This document shows positions 13,509-22,864 of a stretch of DNA of 64,000 nt, piece by piece (the first letter of the stretch is position 1; every line of letters starts with the position of its first letter). The DNA lies in assembly GCA_002491945.1 (NCBI GenBank), contig DKWX01000042.1, positions 31,192 to 95,191 on the forward strand, given 5' to 3'. The position numbers were made by a program, and so were the translations under genes. This DNA comes from Porphyromonadaceae bacterium UBA7141 (GTDB lineage: Bacteria; Bacteroidota; Bacteroidia; Bacteroidales; Muribaculaceae). The notes beneath the pieces were generated by a model. That model was not told where the DNA came from. It did not search any database and saw only the letters and a program-made list of their open reading frames with translations.

Positions 13509-13680
13509 GTGTTCAAATTTAACCGATAGTAATTGAAAGGGGATCTTTTATCCGATCTACGGCTTCTTTTTTGCCGCTTCAGGCTTGTCGTTCAGTCGAA
13601 TATGTCGATATCCTCCTTCACTCAGCACCGGAATCGACTAAAAAATAAGCCCGCATATTGTATAAATTAAATTTGAACAC
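13509..13680 (+). mobile_element. 172-bp palindromic MITE-like element (full copy)
   Basis: Terminal inverted repeats GTGTTCAAATTTAA / TTAAATTTGAACAC, long internal imperfect stem, same length as the copy at 44533. Confidence 0.8.
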
Positions 13681-13784
13681 GTACTTATTGAAAGACACTT
13701 AAATGACTTCTGAATTTGAATACTTACTTACCTTGACTTGAAGTCTATGAAAATGATAATCTGGAACATCTAAATCAAGATGCA

Positions 13785-13816
13785 CAAAATTAAGAGTTTT
13801 TGACTACAATACCAAA
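13785..13816 (-). promoter_or_regulatory. Primary-sigma promoter for the T9SS-cargo gene cluster
   Basis: Minus strand TTTG (13816-13813), 20 nt, TAATTTTG (13792-13785). Confidence 0.55.
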
Positions 13817-14035
13817 TTTTTACACTACATTAGCTGAGTAGTCATATATTCATCTCAGCTCCGTATCCTGTCATATCCCTACTGTTTATCTTGCCTTATT
13901 CCATGACTATATCTGAATCTATAAGGATGTATCATTGACCTCATGTCAATTTGATATGATATGCGACTTATTCGGAAGATGAAGAAAAACACAGGAATCT
14001 AAAATATTTAACTTTTATTAACATGACGACTTTCT

Positions 14036-14073
14036 ACAAAAATAGACCGGAGGGGGGCGCCCCTGCGGTCTAT
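14036..14073 (-). terminator. Intrinsic terminator after icd
   Basis: ATAGACCG...CGGTCTAT stem followed by a U-run on the minus strand. Confidence 0.65.
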
Positions 14074-14097
14074 CATACGTTAAGTCTATTATGTTGT

Positions 14098-15306
14098 TCA
14101 GTTCATACGGCGGTCAAGACGCTCGCGGATTGCGTGAAGGAAGTCGGCAGAGTTTACTGCCTTGGGCTCGATGCCTTCCATAAGATTGACAAGGTCTTTG
14201 GTCACTATGCCGTCGTTGAGAGTGTCGAAGCATGCGTCTTCAAGCTGATTGGCGTAATTCACAAGTTCGGGCAGACTGTCAAGTTCGCCGCGTTTGCGAA
14301 GCGCACCGCTCCATGCGAAGATGGTGGCCATGGGATTAGTAGAGGTCTCTTCTCCTTTGAGATGCTTGTAGTAATGGCGTGTCACTGTGCCGTGTGCCGC
14401 CTCGTACTCATACTTGCCGTCGGGCGATACGAGCACTGAAGTCATCATGGCAAGTGAACCGAAAGCCGTCGACACCATATCGCTCATCACATCGCCGTCG
14501 TAGTTCTTACAGGCCCATATAAAACCGCCATGACTGCGGATCACGCGCGCCACGGCATCGTCGATCAGCGTATAGAAGTACTCTATGCCGAGACGCTCGA
14601 AGTCGCTCTTATACTCTTCGTAGACGGCCTCGAATATCTCGCGGAAACGAGCATCATATTTCTTGGAGATGGTGTCTTTGGTAGAGAACCACAAATCCTG
14701 ACGCGTATCAATTGCGAATTTGAAGCAGGCGTGGGCAAAGGATGTGATGGATTTGTCGGTGTTATGCATCCCCTGGAGCACTCCGGGGGCCTTGAACTCA
14801 TGAATCACGAGTTCCTCGCGCTTCCCCGACTCTCCTTCAAACACGAGTTTTGCGACTCCCGCTTCTTCGGCTCTGATTTCCACATTCTTGTATACATCGC
14901 CATATGCATGACGAGCGATGGTGATGGGCTTCTCCCACGATTTAACCGCAGGCTTGATGGTGGGGATTGTGATGGGGGTGCGGAATACGGTGCCGTCGAG
15001 CAGCGAACGTATTGTGCCGTTAGGACTCTTCCACATCTGATGGAGATTATACTCCGTCATGCGCTGGGCGTTGGGTGTGATGGTGGCGCATTTCACTGCC
15101 ACGCCGTATTTCTTCGTAGCCTCGGCCGCATCTACGGTGATGCGGTCATCGGTCTTGTCGCGCTCGGGCAGACCCAGGTCATAGTATTCTGTCCTGAGGT
15201 CGACGTAGGGAAGAATAAGCTCTTCTTTGATCATCTTCCAGAGGATACGAGTCATTTCATCGCCATCCATCTCAACAAGGGGGGTGGTCATTTTGATTTT
15301 TTCCAT
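14098..15306 (-). CDS. icd: NADP-dependent isocitrate dehydrogenase (type II, eukaryote/clostridial-like)
   Basis: [47 protein letters not shown]. Confidence 0.95.
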
Positions 15307-15410
15307 GGTATTGCTGTTTTACGACGGTCTGCGCAAGCGGCTGTACGTGCTCTGCTCGCGCAGACTGTCCGGTTTATATAGGTTGATTCAGATTTCCGCG
15401 ATGCGGCACT

Positions 15411-17657
15411 TTATTTCTTGCGGGCCGCATAATAGTTCATCAGGCATCCGTCGGCCAGAATCTGACGTTCATCTGCGGTCAGCGGGCTGAAGTGGAGCCG
15501 GATGTCGGTCACACTGCCATCGGCTTTGATTATCTTGGCGTCGGCCTCTTCCTTGCCGCCGAGGATTGCCTCACGTATCCCTGCGACGAATACATAGTCG
15601 CCGGCGCTGCAGTCGAACACTGTATCCTTATCGATTGTGAAAGGCACGATTCCCCAATTGATGCAGTTGGAGCGATAGCGCTTGGTGGCGTATTCATAGC
15701 AGATGTTGGCATCGCCCCCCAGCACTTTCTGACAACTTGCCGCCTGCTCTCGGGCAGAGCCGTCGCCGGGGCGATTGGCGAATACACACGACCCGAATGA
15801 CGTATCGGCACTCTTTGCCCCCACCTTGGCCAACACCTCTTCGATATGCGCCGGGCAATGGCCGTCGCGGCGTTCAAGGTCTTCTTTCTGTATGCGCTTG
15901 CTCAGCCCCACATATTCAGGCACACGGCGTGAGAGAGCGAACTCGGAGAGTTTCAGCGGGTTGGAGCGATAGCTTGATGTCTCGCCCGAAGGGATAAGCT
16001 CATCGGTGGTGGTGACGGGGTCGTGTATCACTGCGGCAAGCTCAAGCAGCATATTCTCCTGCATGGGATACATGCGCGGCCAGTCCTTGATGTTCGGGCC
16101 GTAGCGCAGTTCTTCGTCAAGGTTCTCCTTGCGGAATCCCTGATATACACGGCGCTCATAGATTTTCGGGTCATATTCGTAGGGCTTGTGCTCGTTGGTG
16201 TAGTCCACATCTGTAGCGGCCGTAATCACACCGCCGTTGGCGGCTGTGGCGGCTATCGAGCGGGCATCCATCAGAGCCACAAGCGAAATCTGACCCTGAC
16301 CGGGTTTGGAGCCTTCGCGGTTGGGGAAATTGCGGGTGGTGTGGCGGATTGACAGGCCGTTGTTGGCAGGCACATCGCCGGCGCCGAAGCAGGGTCCGCA
16401 GAATGCGGGCTTGATTACGACTCCGGCCTCAAGTAGCTCGGTGGCTATCCCGTCGCGGGTTGTGGCCATATACACGGGGGTGGACTGCGGATAGGCCGAA
16501 ATCGTGAAGTAGTCGTTGCCTACGCTTTTGTCTTTTAGTATGGACGCGGCTTCGGCAAGGTTATCATATGTGCCCCCCGAACAACCGGCTATGATACCCT
16601 GGTCAGCATAGACCTTCCCGTCGCGCACTTTGCCCGCCAGGTCGATTTCTATCTTGTCGCCAAAGCGCTTGCGTGCGTCTTCCTCCACTTCGCGGAGTAT
16701 ACGCTCCGGGTCGGCCTGCAATTCATGGATGGTGTAGGCGTTGGATGGATGGAACGGCAGTGCTATCATGGCCTCCTGCCGGGAGAGGTCGATGCGTATC
16801 ATGCCGTCATAATAGGCCACTTTGCCAGGGCGCAGCTCGCGATAGTCCTCAGGCCGGCGGTGTATCTCGTAGTGATGGCGCACTTCATCGTCGGTCACCC
16901 AGATGGAACTGAGACAGGTAGTCTCGGTGGTCATGATGTCGATGCCGTTGCGGAAGTCGATGGGGAGATGCTTCACGCCGGGACCTGCGAATTCAAGCAC
17001 TTTATTCTTGACGAATCCACTGTCGAATACGGCCTTTACGAGTGAGATAGCCACGTCATGCGGACCTATACCCTTGCGCGGTACCCCCTCAAGCCATACG
17101 AGCACCACTTCAGGAGCCTTTATGTCCCAGGTGTTGTTGAGCAGCTGCTTCACGAGTTCGCCGCCGCCTTCGCCGACACCCATGTTGCCGAGTGAGCCAT
17201 AGCGGGTGTGACTGTCTGAACCGAGTATCATGTTGCCGCATTTCACCATCATCTCGCGTGCGTACTGGTGTATGACCGCCTGGTTGGCCGGCACGTAGAT
17301 GCCACCGTACTTCTTGGCGGCCGACAGGCCGAATACGTGGTCATCTTCATTGATTGTGCCTCCCACGGCGCAGAGAGAGTTGTGGCAATTGGTCATTGCA
17401 TATGGTATCGGGAACTTCTCAAGTCCCGAAGCGCGTGCTGTCTGGATGATACCTACATATGTGATGTCATGGCTCATCATGGCATCAAACTTGATGCGCA
17501 TGGCATCGTCTTTGGAGCCGTCGGCATCGTGGGCACGGAGTATGCCGTAGGTGATGGTATTCTCTCGGGCTTCGGCAGGTGCGGGAAGTCCGGTAGTGTC
17601 GGTGGCGATGCGTTCGCCGTCGAGGAGATAGACTCCTTTGTCGATTACTTCAACCAT
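15411..17657 (-). CDS. Aconitase-family hydratase, YbhJ type
   Basis: SHDITYVGIIQTA, TNCHNSLCAVGGTIN, GSDSHTRYG, IAGCSGG, FCGPCFG, RNFPNREG, GSAREQA. Confidence 0.88.
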   Translation of the reverse strand: MVEVIDKGVYLLDGERIATDTTGLPAPAEARENTITYGILRAHDADGSKDDAMRIKFDAMMSHDITYVGIIQTARASGLEKFPIPYAMTNCHNSLCAVGGTINEDDHVFGLSAAKKYGGIYVPANQAVIHQYAREMMVKCGNMILGSDSHTRYGSLGNMGVGEGGGELVKQLLNNTWDIKAPEVVLVWLEGVPRKGIGPHDVAISLVKAVFDSGFVKNKVLEFAGPGVKHLPIDFRNGIDIMTTETTCLSSIWVTDDEVRHHYEIHRRPEDYRELRPGKVAYYDGMIRIDLSRQEAMIALPFHPSNAYTIHELQADPERILREVEEDARKRFGDKIEIDLAGKVRDGKVYADQGIIAGCSGGTYDNLAEAASILKDKSVGNDYFTISAYPQSTPVYMATTRDGIATELLEAGVVIKPAFCGPCFGAGDVPANNGLSIRHTTRNFPNREGSKPGQGQISLVALMDARSIAATAANGGVITAATDVDYTNEHKPYEYDPKIYERRVYQGFRKENLDEELRYGPNIKDWPRMYPMQENMLLELAAVIHDPVTTTDELIPSGETSSYRSNPLKLSEFALSRRVPEYVGLSKRIQKEDLERRDGHCPAHIEEVLAKVGAKSADTSFGSCVFANRPGDGSAREQAASCQKVLGGDANICYEYATKRYRSNCINWGIVPFTIDKDTVFDCSAGDYVFVAGIREAILGGKEEADAKIIKADGSVTDIRLHFSPLTADERQILADGCLMNYYAARKK

Positions 17658-17746
17658 GTTGTCAGGTGTTTGGATGTTTAAGGTTGTGTGAATAAATTCC
17701 CATGGCTCTGCCTACGCTTCAGTCAGGCCGGGACGGGAGGAGGATA

Positions 17747-17779
17747 TGTGTCAGGTTTGTATCTGTGTCAGGTTTGTAT
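17747..17779. repeat. Tandem 16-bp direct repeat TGTGTCAGGTTTGTAT x2
   Basis: Exact copies at 17747-17762 and 17764-17779. Confidence 0.9.
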
Positions 17780-17808
17780 TACGGAGGCTCATGAGCCTCC
17801 GGTTTTTG

Positions 17809-19545
17809 TCAGCGGCAGCTGACTGCACGCAGGAAGAATGCGAGGGCGAGCATGTCGGCAGCTCCGCCGGGAGATATTCTCCGGGCCATGAAGTCGGCAT
17901 CGAGTTGCCTCAGAAGCCCCGGCATCTCCGATTCGGAAACTTTAAGGGCCTGCCGGCTGACGGTCTTTACGTAGGCCGCTCCATCCGCTCCGGCGCGATG
18001 CCAGACATTGGAATCCTCTATCCTGCTCATCAGCGACAGCAGCATCCGGTGAGGGTCAGACATCGACGCCACATGGGCGGCTTCCGGATAGCCCTCGCGT
18101 GCGGCCTCAAGAGCGCCGGGGATGCCGTAACGCTTCCTTACCCCATCCCCATGGGTGCCTTCCGGCCGGGGCATCCTGCAGGCGATCGAACTTATCATCT
18201 TTCTTATTGCGGAGATTGTAAGGCATCGGCCAAGTGAGTGGATGCGTGCGGCCGCCACTACGGCAAGTCCGATGGAGAAAAGTGCTCCCCGATGCGTATT
18301 GACGCCCCCGGTGGCCTCCAGCATACGCCTCTCCCCTTCGATGCCGATGGTCTGGAGGTCGGCCGCATCGGGTTCTCCATTAATGGCGATTTCGGCAAGA
18401 CGTGCGAACACGGGTTCAAGCGCAGTGATGCTCCGCATCATCATCGGATAATCCATATCCCGGTGGGCACCTCTGTTGGCACGGTCTACAAGACCGGGTT
18501 TCGGAGTCAGGTCAAGCTCGTCCCGCAGCGCTACCGATGCCGCACGGGCCAGCACATTGGGGATGGCGGCTTCTGCCACAAGGGACAATGCCTCGCCACT
18601 GCGCCCGGTGTCGATCAGTTCTCTCACCCGCGATGCGCTTACAGGCAATCCGTCGCACCCGGTAGCGAGGCGGGGAATCTCACGCAATTCAATGCCCGCC
18701 GACGGCAGACGCCGATGCATCTCTTCGTTGTAGGCGGCCGTAAGGGGATCTTTCGTTTCCGTGCCCACAAACCTTACATCGACACTCAATGCCGGAGCTA
18801 TATGCCGCAGGAACAAGTCGAGGTCAAGACTTATATGGGCGGCCGTCACATCGCTCAGTTCCTTGATGAAGTATGAGGGGAATGTGGAGCGGCTGACCGC
18901 ATACGGACTCCCCTCCACCACCTGCACCGACGGCAAATGCGCCGTGGCACGCCGAAGTATCCTGACGCGACAACGATAACTGAATCCTCCGTCAATATCA
19001 TCGGCCACGGGGATTACGAAGAGGGTATCCGTCTCTGCGGCGGCTTTTTCTATCAGATAGAGATGGCCTATGGTCATCGGATTGGCATTGACCACGATGC
19101 ATCCCACACGGCCGTGGCGTTCGAGCTGGCCCAGATAATCGCAATAGCGCCTGAGCCGACCGGGATCCTGCTCCATCATCACGCATCCTTCCCCTTCTCC
19201 TGTCTTGTGGAAGGCCATCAATGCGAACGCACTCTCATACTCCGGCTTGGTGAATACCCTAAGATTCCTGATTCCATGCCGCGAGGCATATTCCATAATG
19301 GATGTCAGCATGGCCGGAGTCAGCGACTCTCCTCTGACGCAGGGGGCAGTAGCCACGCATTTTATCACATCGCCGCTCAACGAGGCTGTGCCCACAAGGC
19401 GGTCGGAGCTGTCGTATACGCCTACGGCGTAGTCTGCAGGTTCACTCCGCAGACCGCAAGAGGCCAGAAATTCATCGCGTCGCTTAGCCATAAAATCCAG
19501 CGACAACGGCATGTCGCGCAGTTCAAATCCGCTTGAAGTATCCAT
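17809..19545 (-). CDS. citC-citG: Fused CitC ([citrate lyase] ligase) - CitG (triphosphoribosyl-dephospho-CoA synthase)
   Basis: N part: GNAT-like region, NANPMTIGH, YAVSRSTFPSYF, VRFVGTE, VSASRVR. C part: ELDLTPKPGLVD, GAHRDM, NTHRGALF, SPGGAADML. Start is 19545 or 19566. Confidence 0.88.
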   Translation of the reverse strand: MDTSSGFELRDMPLSLDFMAKRRDEFLASCGLRSEPADYAVGVYDSSDRLVGTASLSGDVIKCVATAPCVRGESLTPAMLTSIMEYASRHGIRNLRVFTKPEYESAFALMAFHKTGEGEGCVMMEQDPGRLRRYCDYLGQLERHGRVGCIVVNANPMTIGHLYLIEKAAAETDTLFVIPVADDIDGGFSYRCRVRILRRATAHLPSVQVVEGSPYAVSRSTFPSYFIKELSDVTAAHISLDLDLFLRHIAPALSVDVRFVGTETKDPLTAAYNEEMHRRLPSAGIELREIPRLATGCDGLPVSASRVRELIDTGRSGEALSLVAEAAIPNVLARAASVALRDELDLTPKPGLVDRANRGAHRDMDYPMMMRSITALEPVFARLAEIAINGEPDAADLQTIGIEGERRMLEATGGVNTHRGALFSIGLAVVAAARIHSLGRCLTISAIRKMISSIACRMPRPEGTHGDGVRKRYGIPGALEAAREGYPEAAHVASMSDPHRMLLSLMSRIEDSNVWHRAGADGAAYVKTVSRQALKVSESEMPGLLRQLDADFMARRISPGGAADMLALAFFLRAVSCR

Positions 19546-20029
19546 CGTGCAATCTGAGGATTTCATCCGTAAGTTCGCTTATCGTATGGCGCCCGCTGCG
19601 CATACACACACGGGCGTCGTCGCCGCAGAGCAGACACCGCCGATTGCCGTGTCCTCTGGTAAGGCGGCTCAGGGGCACTCCGTCGCGACCTATGACATCT
19701 ATATCCATCAGACGCCCGAGAGGATGCGTGTCTTCTATCTCAACCGAAAGGCTCTTGGCCTCCTCTTCGTCGGAATCGACAAGGAGGAAGGCCTCGAAAC
19801 CTGTAGGCAGATCATTGACTGTCAGCTCTTGCAACTTCTGACCGAACCGTTCTCTCAATACCCTCACTCCCTCATGGCCTATGTCGCGGCTCTCGGGTGT
19901 CTGTTTTATATTGCCGGGGATATTGACCGTGAGCACTATAAGGGCAAGCTCCGGATGCGCCTCCAGGAGACGGATCTGGAGGTCGCGCCGACGGTCGCGT
20001 GCGGCAAGAAGCTGGTCGAGTGTTATCAC
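19523..20029 (-). CDS. citX: Apo-citrate lyase phosphoribosyl-dephospho-CoA transferase
   Basis: LDQLLAARDRR, NIPGNIK, IEDTHPLGRLMDIDV, RRCLLC, CMRSGRH. Confidence 0.92.
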   Translation of the reverse strand: MITLDQLLAARDRRRDLQIRLLEAHPELALIVLTVNIPGNIKQTPESRDIGHEGVRVLRERFGQKLQELTVNDLPTGFEAFLLVDSDEEEAKSLSVEIEDTHPLGRLMDIDVIGRDGVPLSRLTRGHGNRRCLLCGDDARVCMRSGRHTISELTDEILRLHDGYFKRI

Positions 20030-20033
20030 GTTG

Positions 20034-21572
20034 TCAGTCGGCTATGTTTCTTATTACGTCAAGCACGTTGCCGTCGCGGTTCATCACCACGCCTACCACC
20101 CTGTCGCCGAACGGGAGCGCCGCCGGGGTGCCAATGATTGAGAGGGCTTTGTCGCGGAGGGCTGTGATTTCGGTCACATCAAGTCCGGCAGCCCGCAGGC
20201 GTCCGGCGAGCTCGGGACGGCGCGGATTGACGGCAATCCCATATTCGGTCACTATCACATCGACTGATGAGCCGGGGGTGATAAGTGTGGTCACTTCATC
20301 CACCACACATGGTATGCGTCCGCGAAGCAACGGACATACGATTATCGACAGGGCCGAATCGGCGGCCGTATCGGGATGGCCACCGATGGCGCCGCGGATT
20401 ATTCCATCGCTGCCCACAAGCACGTTGACGTTGAAGTTGACATCCACCTCCAGAGCTGAGAGTATCACCATGTCAAGATAGTGCACTGCCGAACCCGGCT
20501 CATCGGCCGAGGCGTATTCATTGGCGCTGACCTCCTTGTGCATCATATCGCTCTTGAGCGATTCGGCCGCCACCTTGTCGAACGACTGCACGTCGATCAG
20601 GCGTTCAATCAACCCCTCTTCATGCAGTCTGACCATATGGGCGGTGATGCCTCCCAATGCGAAGGAGGCCTTGATGCCTCGGTCAATCATGCTCTGGCGG
20701 ATGTATTTCACCGCTGCGAGCGAGGCTCCGCCGGTGCCGGTCTGTATCGAGAAGCCATCGTTGAAGTAGCCGCTGTTGATGATTACCTTGGCGGCTTTCT
20801 GGGCCAAAAGGATGTCGCGGGGGTTCTTGCTGTCGCGGATTGCCCCGGATGAAATCTTCGAACTGTCACCTACGGAGTCGATTTCCACCACGTAGTCTAC
20901 CTGTCTTTCCGATATGGAACAGGGGGTGTTGGGATAGTCCACAAGGTCATCGGTGAGTATCACCACCTTGTCGGCATACTGTGCGTCGGGAAGCGCATAA
21001 CCCAATGAGCCGCAGATTGACTTGGCGTTTTCAGACCGTGAGTAGCCGCAGGCGTTGCCAAGAGGATCGGCCGAGGAGGCTCCGAGGAATGCCACGTCGA
21101 TGTGCAGGTCGCCGGAGGCGATCGCACTGCCACGGCCTCCATGACTGCGGAATATCACTGGTTCTTTCATAAGGCCGCGTGAGATACGGTCGGCCAGCTG
21201 ACCGCGCAGTCCGGAGGTGGAGATTCTGGTGATTACGCCGTTCTCTATATGCTCAATGAGCGGAGCGTGCACATCCGACAGGCTGGACGCGGCGAGGTGA
21301 AGGTCTTTGAACCCCATCTCTGCCAGACGCCCCACTACGAGATTGACAACCTTGTCGCCGCCACGGAAGTGATGATGGAATGATATCGTCATACCGTCTT
21401 TCAGTCCGCTGCGGCGTATGGCCTCATCAAGTGTCACCAGTTTGGGCGACGCTTTCTGGAGCTCCATGCGCGGAGTGGGGTTCTTGACTGATGTCTCGGG
21501 ATGACTTACGGTCTTGTTGAGTTGTTCGGCCGCCTTCTCCGCAAGGGGCGCGCGTTGACTGATGCTGCTCAT
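20034..21572 (-). CDS. citF: Citrate lyase alpha subunit (citrate CoA-transferase)
   Basis: GLKDGMTISFHHHFRGGD, RSHGGR, GSLGYA, QTGTGG, GGHPDTA. Confidence 0.95.
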   Translation of the reverse strand: MSSISQRAPLAEKAAEQLNKTVSHPETSVKNPTPRMELQKASPKLVTLDEAIRRSGLKDGMTISFHHHFRGGDKVVNLVVGRLAEMGFKDLHLAASSLSDVHAPLIEHIENGVITRISTSGLRGQLADRISRGLMKEPVIFRSHGGRGSAIASGDLHIDVAFLGASSADPLGNACGYSRSENAKSICGSLGYALPDAQYADKVVILTDDLVDYPNTPCSISERQVDYVVEIDSVGDSSKISSGAIRDSKNPRDILLAQKAAKVIINSGYFNDGFSIQTGTGGASLAAVKYIRQSMIDRGIKASFALGGITAHMVRLHEEGLIERLIDVQSFDKVAAESLKSDMMHKEVSANEYASADEPGSAVHYLDMVILSALEVDVNFNVNVLVGSDGIIRGAIGGHPDTAADSALSIIVCPLLRGRIPCVVDEVTTLITPGSSVDVIVTEYGIAVNPRRPELAGRLRAAGLDVTEITALRDKALSIIGTPAALPFGDRVVGVVMNRDGNVLDVIRNIAD

Positions 21573-22460
21573 TTACACTTCCTCCTCTTTTAATATTCCT
21601 GATGCGATTGCAAGATCTATGGTGCGCTGGGCTCGTATCACTACCGGACGGTCCACCATCTTGCCGTTGACGGCTATCACACCCGAGCCCTTTGCTTCGG
21701 CCTCCCGTATGGCGGCCAGTATGATGCGCGCCTTCTCAATGGCTTTTTCAGTAGGCGCGAACACTTCATTGACAATTTCGATCTGACGGGGGTTGATGAT
21801 GGATTTTCCGTCGAATCCGAGTCTATGAATAAATTCCACTTCTTTGCGGAATGTCTCCATATCTTCGAGATTGGAATATACTGTATCAAGCGCTGCTATG
21901 CCGGCGGCGCGGGCGGCCACTACGATTGTCTCGCGGGCCAGACGCAGTTCGTCGCCATCGGGTGTGCGCTGGGTCTTGAGATTCGCACAATAATCTTCGG
22001 CACCCAGAGCTATGCCCATCATGCGTGGAGATGCGGTGGCTATGGCATAGGCGTTGCAGATGCCGAGGGCGCTTTCGATGGCTGCCATGATGAGCGTGCG
22101 CCCCTCGCATCCTATCTCTCGCTCTACCCTCTCTATCTCTCGCTCCACTTCCACTACCTCTTCAGCAGTCTCTGTCTTGGGCATGCGTATCACATCCACG
22201 CCGGCCTTTACTACAGCCTCTATATCTTTCTTGCCGTAAGGTGTGTTGAGGGGATTGATTCGCACCACCATCTCTGTATCGCCGTAATCCACGCTTTTAA
22301 GAGCGTTATAGACAAGAAGCCGGGCTGTGTCTTTCTCAGCCATTGTCACTGAGTCTTCAAGGTCGAGCATGATGGAGTCCGGCCTATAGATATGGGCATC
22401 GGCCATCATTCCGGGATTGTTGCCCGGCACGAACATCATTGTCCGTCGGAGTCTTTCCAT
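21573..22460 (-). CDS. citE: Citrate lyase beta subunit (citryl-ACP lyase)
   Basis: RRTMMFVPGNNP, DLEDSV, GFDGKSIINPRQI, GKMVDRP. Confidence 0.95.
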   Translation of the reverse strand: MERLRRTMMFVPGNNPGMMADAHIYRPDSIMLDLEDSVTMAEKDTARLLVYNALKSVDYGDTEMVVRINPLNTPYGKKDIEAVVKAGVDVIRMPKTETAEEVVEVEREIERVEREIGCEGRTLIMAAIESALGICNAYAIATASPRMMGIALGAEDYCANLKTQRTPDGDELRLARETIVVAARAAGIAALDTVYSNLEDMETFRKEVEFIHRLGFDGKSIINPRQIEIVNEVFAPTEKAIEKARIILAAIREAEAKGSGVIAVNGKMVDRPVVIRAQRTIDLAIASGILKEEEV

Positions 22461-22493
22461 GGTAATTTCTGATGTAGGTTGGTTAGATTGGTT

Positions 22494-22775
22494 TCAGTCG
22501 GCCCAGACGTCCTTGCCTGTGGCCCGAACGGCTGCCGCCGTCACTCGTGCGCGGATTGTACAGTCGAGTGCTCCTTTGTCGGTAGCATTCACTTCAGCCG
22601 AATCTATACCGAGCTCCGCAAGGGTCTCGGCTATTACCCGGCGTATCTGGTCGCCGAACTGGCAGGCCACCGAACTCTCCAGATGGATTGTAAGTCCGGG
22701 TGTCGGACTCGGCATCAGGCGCACATGGATGTCGCCTGACTCAAGGGTGCCCGCAAATGATTCTTTCAGTTGCAT
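22494..22775 (-). CDS. citD: Citrate lyase acyl carrier protein (gamma subunit)
   Basis: AGTLESGD attachment-site motif and DKGALDCTIRAR. Confidence 0.95.
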   Translation of the reverse strand: MQLKESFAGTLESGDIHVRLMPSPTPGLTIHLESSVACQFGDQIRRVIAETLAELGIDSAEVNATDKGALDCTIRARVTAAAVRATGKDVWAD

Positions 22776-22864
22776 AATCTGTGCTTTAGGTATGTAGATT
22801 TGACCGCAAATTTAGCTTTTTTTTTGAATATGGAAGAGTCTCTCCTCACTTTTTATCATACATT

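Follow-up and report, generated by a model that had tools for sequence, protein, structure and literature searches.

The stretch of DNA analysed here (the window) comprises 64,000 nucleotides of contig DKWX01000042.1 of Porphyromonadaceae bacterium UBA7141, a 2.17-Mb Muribaculaceae metagenome-assembled genome (labelled G000) that is 84% complete; the DNA and RNA runs that contain the stretch originate from the mouse gut. Between positions 14098 and 22775 it carries a module of seven minus-strand genes (citD, citE, citF, citX, citC::citG, a hydratase gene and icd) in which the components of a predicted citrate lyase are joined to an aconitase-family hydratase and an isocitrate dehydrogenase (IDH). 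A preliminary description of the window had named these seven co-oriented genes and had stated that a transporter, a regulator and an oxaloacetate decarboxylase are missing from the cluster; curated models identify all seven, and profile searches of the window's proteins place none of those three partners among them. The genes and the signals around them are as follows.

22807-22814, minus strand: Bacteroidetes-type -7 promoter box TAAATTTG, 39 nt upstream of the citD ATG
22494-22775, minus strand: citD, citrate lyase acyl carrier protein (ACP; gamma subunit); TIGR01608 at 100.8 bits (cut-off 63.5), PF06857
21573-22460, minus strand: citE, citrate lyase beta subunit (citryl-ACP lyase); TIGR01588 at 453.4 bits (cut-off 443.4, a narrow pass), PF03328
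20034-21572, minus strand: citF, citrate lyase alpha subunit (citrate:acetyl-ACP transferase); TIGR01584 at 708.7 bits (cut-off 501.45), PF04223
19523-20029, minus strand: citX, holo-ACP synthase; TIGR03124 at 150.9 bits (cut-off 105)
17809-19566, minus strand: citC::citG fusion, 585 aa; PF08218 at 167.6 bits and PF01874 at 203 bits
17782-17801, no strand assigned: perfect 20-nt palindrome (hairpin) just past the citC::G stop; 8 bp, -14.9 kcal/mol
15411-17657, minus strand: YbhJ-type aconitase-family Fe-S hydratase, 748 aa; NF008503/PRK11413 at 1203 bits (cut-off 641) over residues 1-747
14098-15306, minus strand: icd, eukaryote-type homodimeric NADP-dependent isocitrate dehydrogenase; NF006156 at 641.2 bits (cut-off 335), TIGR00127 at 541.6 (cut-off 397)
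14036-14074, minus strand: intrinsic terminator 3′ of icd; 14-bp interrupted stem followed by UUUUU, -22.7 kcal/mol, z = -3.7

Genes and operon signals

The module is compact, with gaps of 33, 0 and 4 nt along citD, citE, citF and citX and a 44-nt overlap between citX and citC::citG, followed by wider spacers of 151 nt (citC::citG to hydratase) and 104 nt (hydratase to icd); it is flanked by an M3 peptidase gene and a 713-aa open reading frame (ORF) that has no family match. CitD retains, in an LESGD motif at residues 11-15, the serine to which the phosphoribosyl-dephospho-CoA prosthetic group is attached. The fusion protein is laid out as an acetate:SH-citrate lyase ligase (residues ~26-333) followed by a triphosphoribosyl-dephospho-CoA synthase (~338-582); both parts score below the NCBIfam equivalog cut-offs (243.8 against 262.1 for CitC, 164.7 against 272.3 for CitG), and the fusion is general among Muribaculaceae relatives. 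By these membership tests, CitDEF together with CitC, CitX and CitG is predicted to be a full citrate lyase system (EC 4.1.3.6), and one that should be self-activating, with CitDEF, CitX and CitC::G encoded in the same operon.

The seven genes are one operon, with a promoter before citD, a terminator after icd and internal spacers that are nearly free of promoter boxes. Among the relatives' loci described below, 58 of 66 species have a TAnnTTTG box in the 250 nt preceding citD, 50 of them together with a TTTG -33 element, and the box is rare in the internal spacers (1/76 between citCG and hydratase, 1/75 between hydratase and icd). Independent transcription of the two halves of the cluster, which the preliminary description had named as a possible refutation and had linked to the hairpin between them, is therefore not what the spacers suggest. 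The hairpin itself exists as described; it is rejected as an operon terminator because its T-run lies on the plus strand, leaving the gene strand without a U-tract, and because the corresponding spacers in relatives are as short as 10 nt (median 44 nt; the hydratase-icd spacers have a median of 77 and a minimum of 8 nt). Nor is it a general feature among the relatives.

The hydratase is 55% identical over its full length to Escherichia coli YbhJ, and it is the single PF00330 match, and the only aconitase-family gene, in the window's genome. When aligned with mitochondrial aconitase it is identical at the three 4Fe-4S ligands (Cys358, Cys421 and Cys424) and at His101, His147, Asp165, Ser166, His167, Glu262, Arg447, Arg452, Ser642 and Arg644; the counterpart of Arg580 is left unaligned by HMMER. 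It is probably a citrate/isocitrate isomerase (that is, it would have aconitase activity), an assignment that the genomic context supports and that would give the orphan YbhJ family its first clear, testable function. Two points weigh against this assignment and the pathway built upon it below: the hydratase differs from mitochondrial aconitase at three substrate contacts (Q72->H, N258->I, S643->A), and E. coli YbhJ has no known activity. In addition, the score against the NCBIfam aconitate hydratase model NF005558 is 305 bits (cut-off 612), and Blank et al. reportedly observed in 2002 that inactivation of ybhJ in E. coli left the residual aconitase activity unchanged. These four points can be read to mean that the module handles a different hydroxy-tricarboxylate, for example of the methyl- or homo-citrate type, and that the hydratase is not a true aconitase. 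We consider this very improbable: CitD, CitE, CitF and the IDH score above the curated equivalog cut-offs of the citrate lyase and NADP-isocitrate dehydrogenase models, the genome has no other aconitase-family gene that would connect lyase and IDH, and the hydratase keeps the cluster cysteines, Ser642, both aspartate and glutamate (Asp165, Glu262), the three histidines and arginines 447, 452 and 644.

Distant YbhJ-family contexts were also considered as a guide and set aside, as they are mostly short contigs that hold little information. One alone is informative: a metagenome contig (L109:4591-10202) carries a LysR gene beside a string of an Iso_dh-family dehydrogenase, a PrpF isomerase and a YbhJ-family hydratase (40% identity), with two more aconitase-family genes adjoining. 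This string looks like an aconitate-to-2-oxoglutarate catabolic cluster, as judged from its gene content, and would thus support a tricarboxylate substrate for the YbhJ family. In E. coli, ybhJ is part of the group ybhD / ybhH-ybhI-ybhJ, whose function is unknown, and has genes for a PrpF-type isomerase, a putative tricarboxylate transporter and a LysR regulator as neighbours; in the module, by contrast, the hydratase lies beside citrate lyase and IDH, and the five module-carrying genomes searched have no PrpF homologue.

Distribution and missing partners

A one-genome-per-species scan yielded 527 stretches that encode a relative of the hydratase. The best 80 of the 527, which are used for all locus comparisons, are all Muribaculaceae-type and come from rumen, horse, rabbit, mouse and human guts. 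Conservation of the synteny in relatives, on which the preliminary description had made its proposal depend, is clear: the same seven-gene order is kept in ~75 of the 80 loci, with all seven genes at >=70% coverage in 61, and most of the loci that fall short of seven are interrupted by contig ends. The arrangement is thus far beyond chance, and the operon occurs in hundreds of gut species.

Within the family the module is an optional one. An evenly drawn sample of 121 Muribaculaceae genomes covers 35 genera. One and the same set of five of these genomes encodes true CitF, true hydratase and true IDH, and IDH of the NF006156 type is confined to the module-carrying genomes (the Bacteroides thetaiotaomicron control genome also gives no match to this model). 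A ~500-aa ORF with a weak partial match to the CitF model is found in most family genomes and is a putative member of the acetyl-CoA hydrolase/transferase family. More broadly, among 301 genomes of 148 Bacteroidales families the hydratase is encoded in only two, the window's own and one other. Two of five genomes of the window's genus carry the module, so that carriers and non-carriers inside one genus offer a natural contrast. In the 99%-complete congener G087 the module lies on contig C6 and the ortholog of the M3 peptidase on contig C10; the module-negative congener G063 shares the upstream synteny as far as the M3 peptidase and has no module. A clean empty site is not definable in G063, and no insertion boundary is drawn there, because the downstream genes differ. 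Hence the module is one evolutionary unit, optional and all-or-none in the family sample.

The flanks of the module vary among the 80 loci while the seven-gene order stays. In 16 of them (for example L039:2136-4440) citD is immediately preceded by co-oriented pta-ackA and retains its own promoter box, and in six relatives (for example L034:14149-16431) a 760-aa NfnAB-like NADPH-linked oxidoreductase fusion (NF009414) lies directly downstream of icd. Four loci (L080, L073, L036 and L062) hold a partial module only (hydratase alone, hydratase-icd, or citCG-hydratase-icd), with unrelated genes at the place of citDEFX; these are possible intermediates of decay or rearrangement.

The median identity across relatives is 84% for the hydratase, 84% for the IDH, 86% for CitE and 81% for CitF, and ~43% for CitX and CitC::G, while the neighbouring M3 peptidase is only 60-69% identical within the genus. 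Because the catalytic proteins are far more conserved than the neighbouring peptidase, the module is old rather than the product of a recent sweep, and its enzymes are under strong constraint. Homologue searches with the hydratase and CitC::G gave close Muribaculaceae relatives only, and no donor lineage can therefore be named.

The preliminary description had reported no citrate synthase in the cluster and had allowed for a normal gltA-acn pair elsewhere in the genome; a genome-wide search gave no PF00285 match in the window's genome (84% complete) and none in the 121 family genomes, and the hydratase gene is the single aconitase-family gene of its genome, leaving no such pair. Among 50 further module carriers one has a PF00285 citrate synthase (G466:C96:56906-58084, 383 bits), which could be a true co-occurrence or a mis-binned contig. 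Likewise, the search for a Re-citrate synthase gave no full HMGL-type (Re-citrate synthase/LeuA) match in five carriers, which have partial OadA-type matches only.

Citrate carriers of the CitMHS, DASS and 2HCT families are found neither in the window's genome nor in the 99%-complete G087, the MFS, TRAP and TTT families not having been searched. In 17 of the 50 other carriers neither CitMHS nor DASS is found, and 2HCT is in none of those 17; a constant classical citrate carrier among module carriers is thus rejected by these searches. Across the 80 loci, the flanks of the module show no recurring gene for a carrier, a sensor or a decarboxylase. Use of trans-aconitate by way of a PrpF isomerase is rejected as well, the five carriers having no PrpF homologue. 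The same searches bear on another pathway: the window's genome and G087 have no LeuC-type and no full LeuA/isopropylmalate synthase-type (HMGL) match, while a LeuC-like gene is present in most other sampled Muribaculaceae; because both kinds of match are missing, the window's genus may be a leucine auxotroph.

Direction of flux

The firmest conclusion to be drawn from the gene content is that the operon would provide a self-contained three-step link, oxaloacetate + acetate <-> 2-oxoglutarate + CO2 + NADPH, which would act on internal pools in cells otherwise unable to make or use citrate. As to the direction of flux, we tentatively favour, at somewhat short of an even chance, the reductive one, from 2-oxoglutarate through citrate to oxaloacetate and acetate. 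In this scheme, 2-oxoglutarate would presumably be supplied from glutamate, by glutamate dehydrogenase (GDH) or transaminases, or from succinyl-CoA by a KorAB-type oxidoreductase; the NADP-IDH would carboxylate it to isocitrate; the YbhJ-type hydratase would convert isocitrate to citrate; and the lyase, working in its usual direction, would split citrate into acetate and oxaloacetate, the latter entering the malate-fumarate-succinate branch or being decarboxylated. With an NADP-linked GDH, the conversion of glutamate to oxaloacetate and acetate would be redox-neutral and require no ATP.

The sources of 2-oxoglutarate (GDH, KorAB) and the sinks for oxaloacetate (malate dehydrogenase-like, class I fumarase, FrdA and OadA-like proteins) are encoded in carriers. 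GDH, a malate/lactate dehydrogenase-type enzyme and an FrdA-type fumarate reductase flavoprotein are each present in five of five carriers, class I fumarase is in four of the five (it was not found in the incomplete genome of the window), and another contig of the window's genome encodes an OadA/pyruvate carboxylase B-like protein. A KorA-type 2-oxoacid:ferredoxin oxidoreductase is found in 116 of the 121 family genomes and in 45 of the 50 further carriers, and in the window's genome a KorB-type gene adjoins korA, the substrate of KorAB being assigned by type only.

Several considerations lead us to favour the reductive direction: the lyase would act in its only known role, since to our knowledge cleavage is the one physiological function established for citrate lyase; no carrier would be required; the kinetics are more favourable; and, because 2-oxoglutarate needs all three steps to reach the lyase, it would be clear why icd and the hydratase are strictly inherited together with the cit genes. 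The NfnAB-like oxidoreductase 3′ of icd in six species is also counted toward it. By textbook values, the standard free energy change of all three steps is within ~10 kJ/mol of zero, and with an NADP-linked GDH the path as far as glutamate would be neutral in both redox and ATP and close to balance at physiological concentrations. Since the steps are near equilibrium, direction would be set by mass action, with high CO2 and a high NADPH/NADP ratio pushing toward citrate cleavage. Millimolar 2-oxoglutarate and gut CO2 would bring citrate up to the range of the lyase Km, while in the opposite direction micromolar oxaloacetate leaves all three enzymes far below saturation.

We hesitate to make a stronger statement on direction, as a number of points weigh against the reductive one. 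Near equilibrium, high acetate and ammonium push toward 2-oxoglutarate; the gene order of lyase, hydratase and IDH is the order of the oxidative pathway; the acn-icd pair in strict anaerobes normally serves 2-oxoglutarate synthesis; glutamate breakdown could proceed more simply through KorAB to succinyl-CoA; literature searches gave no bacterial precedent for a reductive route based on CitDEF; and the searches for missing partners were made in a window genome that is only 84% complete. Literature searches also gave no description of the combination of citrate lyase, hydratase and IDH genes.

Some of these same points can be taken to suggest a biosynthetic role. Here the lyase would run backwards, with CitE forming citryl-ACP from acetyl-S-ACP and oxaloacetate and CitF letting acetate displace citrate, after which the hydratase and IDH would yield 2-oxoglutarate and NADPH for glutamate; the module would then be an ATP-free and ferredoxin-free substitute for the citrate synthase branch in acetate-rich guts. 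This is a possible, if doubtful, alternative. It accords with the failure to find either kind of citrate synthase (one of 50 further carriers having PF00285) and CitMHS, DASS or 2HCT carriers in the window's genome or G087, with the location of the genome's sole aconitase-family gene and sole IDH inside the operon, and with a gene order colinear with this direction. CitC is encoded and would keep the ACP acetylated, the NADP-IDH would match an NADPH-dependent GDH, and by textbook constants the overall reaction to glutamate is roughly balanced physiologically. The high median identity of the catalytic subunits (81-86%, against 60-69% for the peptidase) suggests abundant enzymes, as a near-equilibrium uphill step would need. 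Moreover, 2-oxoglutarate supply is the usual role of acn-icd in anaerobes, ATP would be saved, and Bacteroides too has two routes to 2-oxoglutarate.

On the other side, 116 of the 121 family genomes have neither the module nor a citrate synthase, and KorAB is near-universal, so that family members can do without the module, whose distribution shows no complementarity with the KorAB route to 2-oxoglutarate (the counts given above reject it). CitDEF is known as a citrate-forming enzyme from no organism; micromolar oxaloacetate would give sub-micromolar citrate and isocitrate, far under the usual Km; and a single gltA from a neighbouring Bacteroides would have been a much simpler acquisition than six lyase genes. 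An optional module in a KorAB-rich family thus fits an add-on better than an essential biosynthetic step. Were the biosynthetic role nonetheless true, it would be the first case of citrate lyase as a citrate-forming enzyme.

It is also worth considering that the substrate may come from outside the cell, as plant or host citrate, isocitrate or aconitate taken up by an unrecognised carrier, cleaved by the lyase and in part diverted in a side stream to 2-oxoglutarate. Cleavage is the only proven role of citrate lyase, and a patchy, optional distribution is typical of substrate-specific operons; the gut habitats of the carriers (rumen, horse, rabbit, mouse and human) contain plant tricarboxylates, relatives of YbhJ elsewhere lie in catabolic-looking contexts (the PrpF-type isomerase and putative tricarboxylate transporter of E. 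coli, and L109), and an OadA-like protein is encoded elsewhere in the window's genome. We nevertheless think import unlikely, given that CitMHS, DASS and 2HCT were not found in the window's genome or G087, and CitMHS and DASS not in 17 of the 50 others, that the flanks of the 80 loci show no recurrent gene of the carrier, sensor or decarboxylase kind, that the five carriers have no PrpF isomerase, and that the strict co-inheritance of icd would be left unexplained. That the module turns up in RNA libraries of mice not known to receive citrate points weakly the same way.

These readings correspond to three models that the preliminary description had set out and whose weights our analysis shifts. 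The one in which imported citrate is split between cleavage and glutamate synthesis is weakened, since the classical carriers were not found; the one in which CitEF chemistry supplies citrate in place of a missing synthase is not needed to explain 2-oxoglutarate supply, since a KorAB-type enzyme is near-universal; and the reductive route pulled by the lyase fits best by inference.

Several known systems invite comparison with the module. The fermentative citrate lyase operons, such as Klebsiella pneumoniae citCDEFG with citS-oadGAB-citAB and E. coli citCDEFXG-citT, share with it CitD with its serine, CitE, CitF, CitX, CitG and CitC. Unlike them, the module has no carrier, two-component sensor or oxaloacetate decarboxylase genes, its CitC and CitG are fused, a hydratase and an NADP-IDH are added, and its host has no citrate synthase. 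Because carrier, decarboxylase and sensor are missing, it is not a classical citrate fermentation locus. In Bacteroides fragilis, Baughn and Malamy are said to have described in 2002 an operon for the oxidative branch of the tricarboxylic acid (TCA) cycle (aconitase, isocitrate dehydrogenase and citrate synthase). B. fragilis belongs to the same taxonomic order as the host of the module, its operon likewise combines an aconitase-type enzyme, an IDH and one citrate-handling enzyme, and this anaerobe also has a reductive route to 2-oxoglutarate; the module differs in that a six-gene citrate lyase system replaces citrate synthase and the hydratase is of the YbhJ type. With no synthase, the module is not an oxidative TCA branch operon. 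The earlier statement that the lyase occupies the synthase's usual place is an analogy with the Bacteroides operons and does not show that the lyase functions as a synthase.

In its chemistry the module resembles the citrate-cleaving segment of the reductive TCA cycle (NADP-IDH, aconitase and ATP-citrate lyase or citryl-CoA synthetase/lyase) and mammalian reductive glutamine metabolism (IDH1/2, aconitase and ACLY): it would share with both the three steps that lead from 2-oxoglutarate to oxaloacetate and a C2 unit, and its IDH belongs to the same reversible eukaryote-type family. The difference is that cleavage by the module would be ATP-independent and ACP-bound and would give free acetate rather than acetyl-CoA. 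In Acidaminococcus fermentans, whose fermentation of trans-aconitate and citrate was reportedly described by Härtel and Buckel in 1996, an aconitase-type step likewise feeds citrate lyase in an anaerobic gut bacterium; unlike the module, that route starts with imported aconitate, ends with a sodium-pumping oxaloacetate decarboxylase and involves no IDH. The enzymes are known; what is new is the operon, which is widespread and represented in RNA libraries from the gut.

Muribaculaceae rank with the most abundant bacteria of mouse, ruminant and human guts; what is known of their central metabolism comes mainly from genome annotation. If flux through the module is reductive, it would be a new route of glutamate or 2-oxoglutarate breakdown, possibly closing a reductive cycle. 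Because the family nearly always encodes an oxaloacetate-to-succinate branch, a CoA-transferase-like protein and a KorAB-type enzyme, addition of this single operon would close a full reductive TCA loop, with ACP-bound, ATP-independent citrate splitting and exit of the fixed carbon as free acetate. We judge such a loop decidedly unlikely; if real, it would be a carbon-neutral electron sink and a new kind of CO2-to-acetate route, by which a gut fermenter could shift to acetate and spare the C3 skeleton that succinate or propionate would cost. Either result, reductive or biosynthetic, would alter metabolic models of Muribaculaceae and of gut acetate, succinate and nitrogen flow.

Transcripts and further features

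All seven genes are covered by RNA contigs of four mouse-gut metatranscriptome studies. In one run from an identical strain (X14), contig depth, which is a poor measure for ranking genes and to that extent weakens what can be read from it in favour of the pathway, is ~100 over icd, 39-58 over the hydratase, 10-18 over the cit genes and 2.6 over the neighbouring peptidase. These depths hint at strong expression, with extra transcription or stability of hydratase-icd in this strain. The citCG-hydratase spacer has a depth of 6 in this run, below both sides, a weak hint of partial attenuation at 17782-17801. RNA contigs of two other runs (X15 and X17) bridge citCG and the hydratase; they are not accepted as proof of a single transcript, as a contig is not a transcript and as DNA carry-over is possible, their depth being flat across more than 20 kb. 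At the citF-citX junction (20046-20056) the contigs of X15, X17 and X19, from a strain ~1% different, all break and continue with another short sequence, which indicates a strain-level variant of this junction.

Searches for further regulatory elements returned little. At E up to 0.1, the operon gives no Rfam match to a riboswitch or other known RNA element, and a scan for the sigma-70 consensus was set aside, its counts equalling those in shuffled sequence and this consensus not being informative for Bacteroidetes. A strict GGAA-N2-8-TTCC palindrome lies upstream of citD in 4 of 66 species, with looser forms visible in more, and a conserved operator at this place is rejected on that count. 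In several species (for example L019, L042 and L005) a palindrome of the CGGAAA-N-TTTCCG type is found ~43 nt upstream of the -7 box and may be a regulator site; it is absent from the citD promoter of this window.

Just downstream of the operon, at 13509-13680, lies a fold-back repeat of ~172 bp. RNA-library contigs at 13600-13920 are short and very deep, reaching 466 in X15 and 161 in X17, and have many loose ends at 13626-13730; this pattern fits a multi-copy element or an abundant small transcript.

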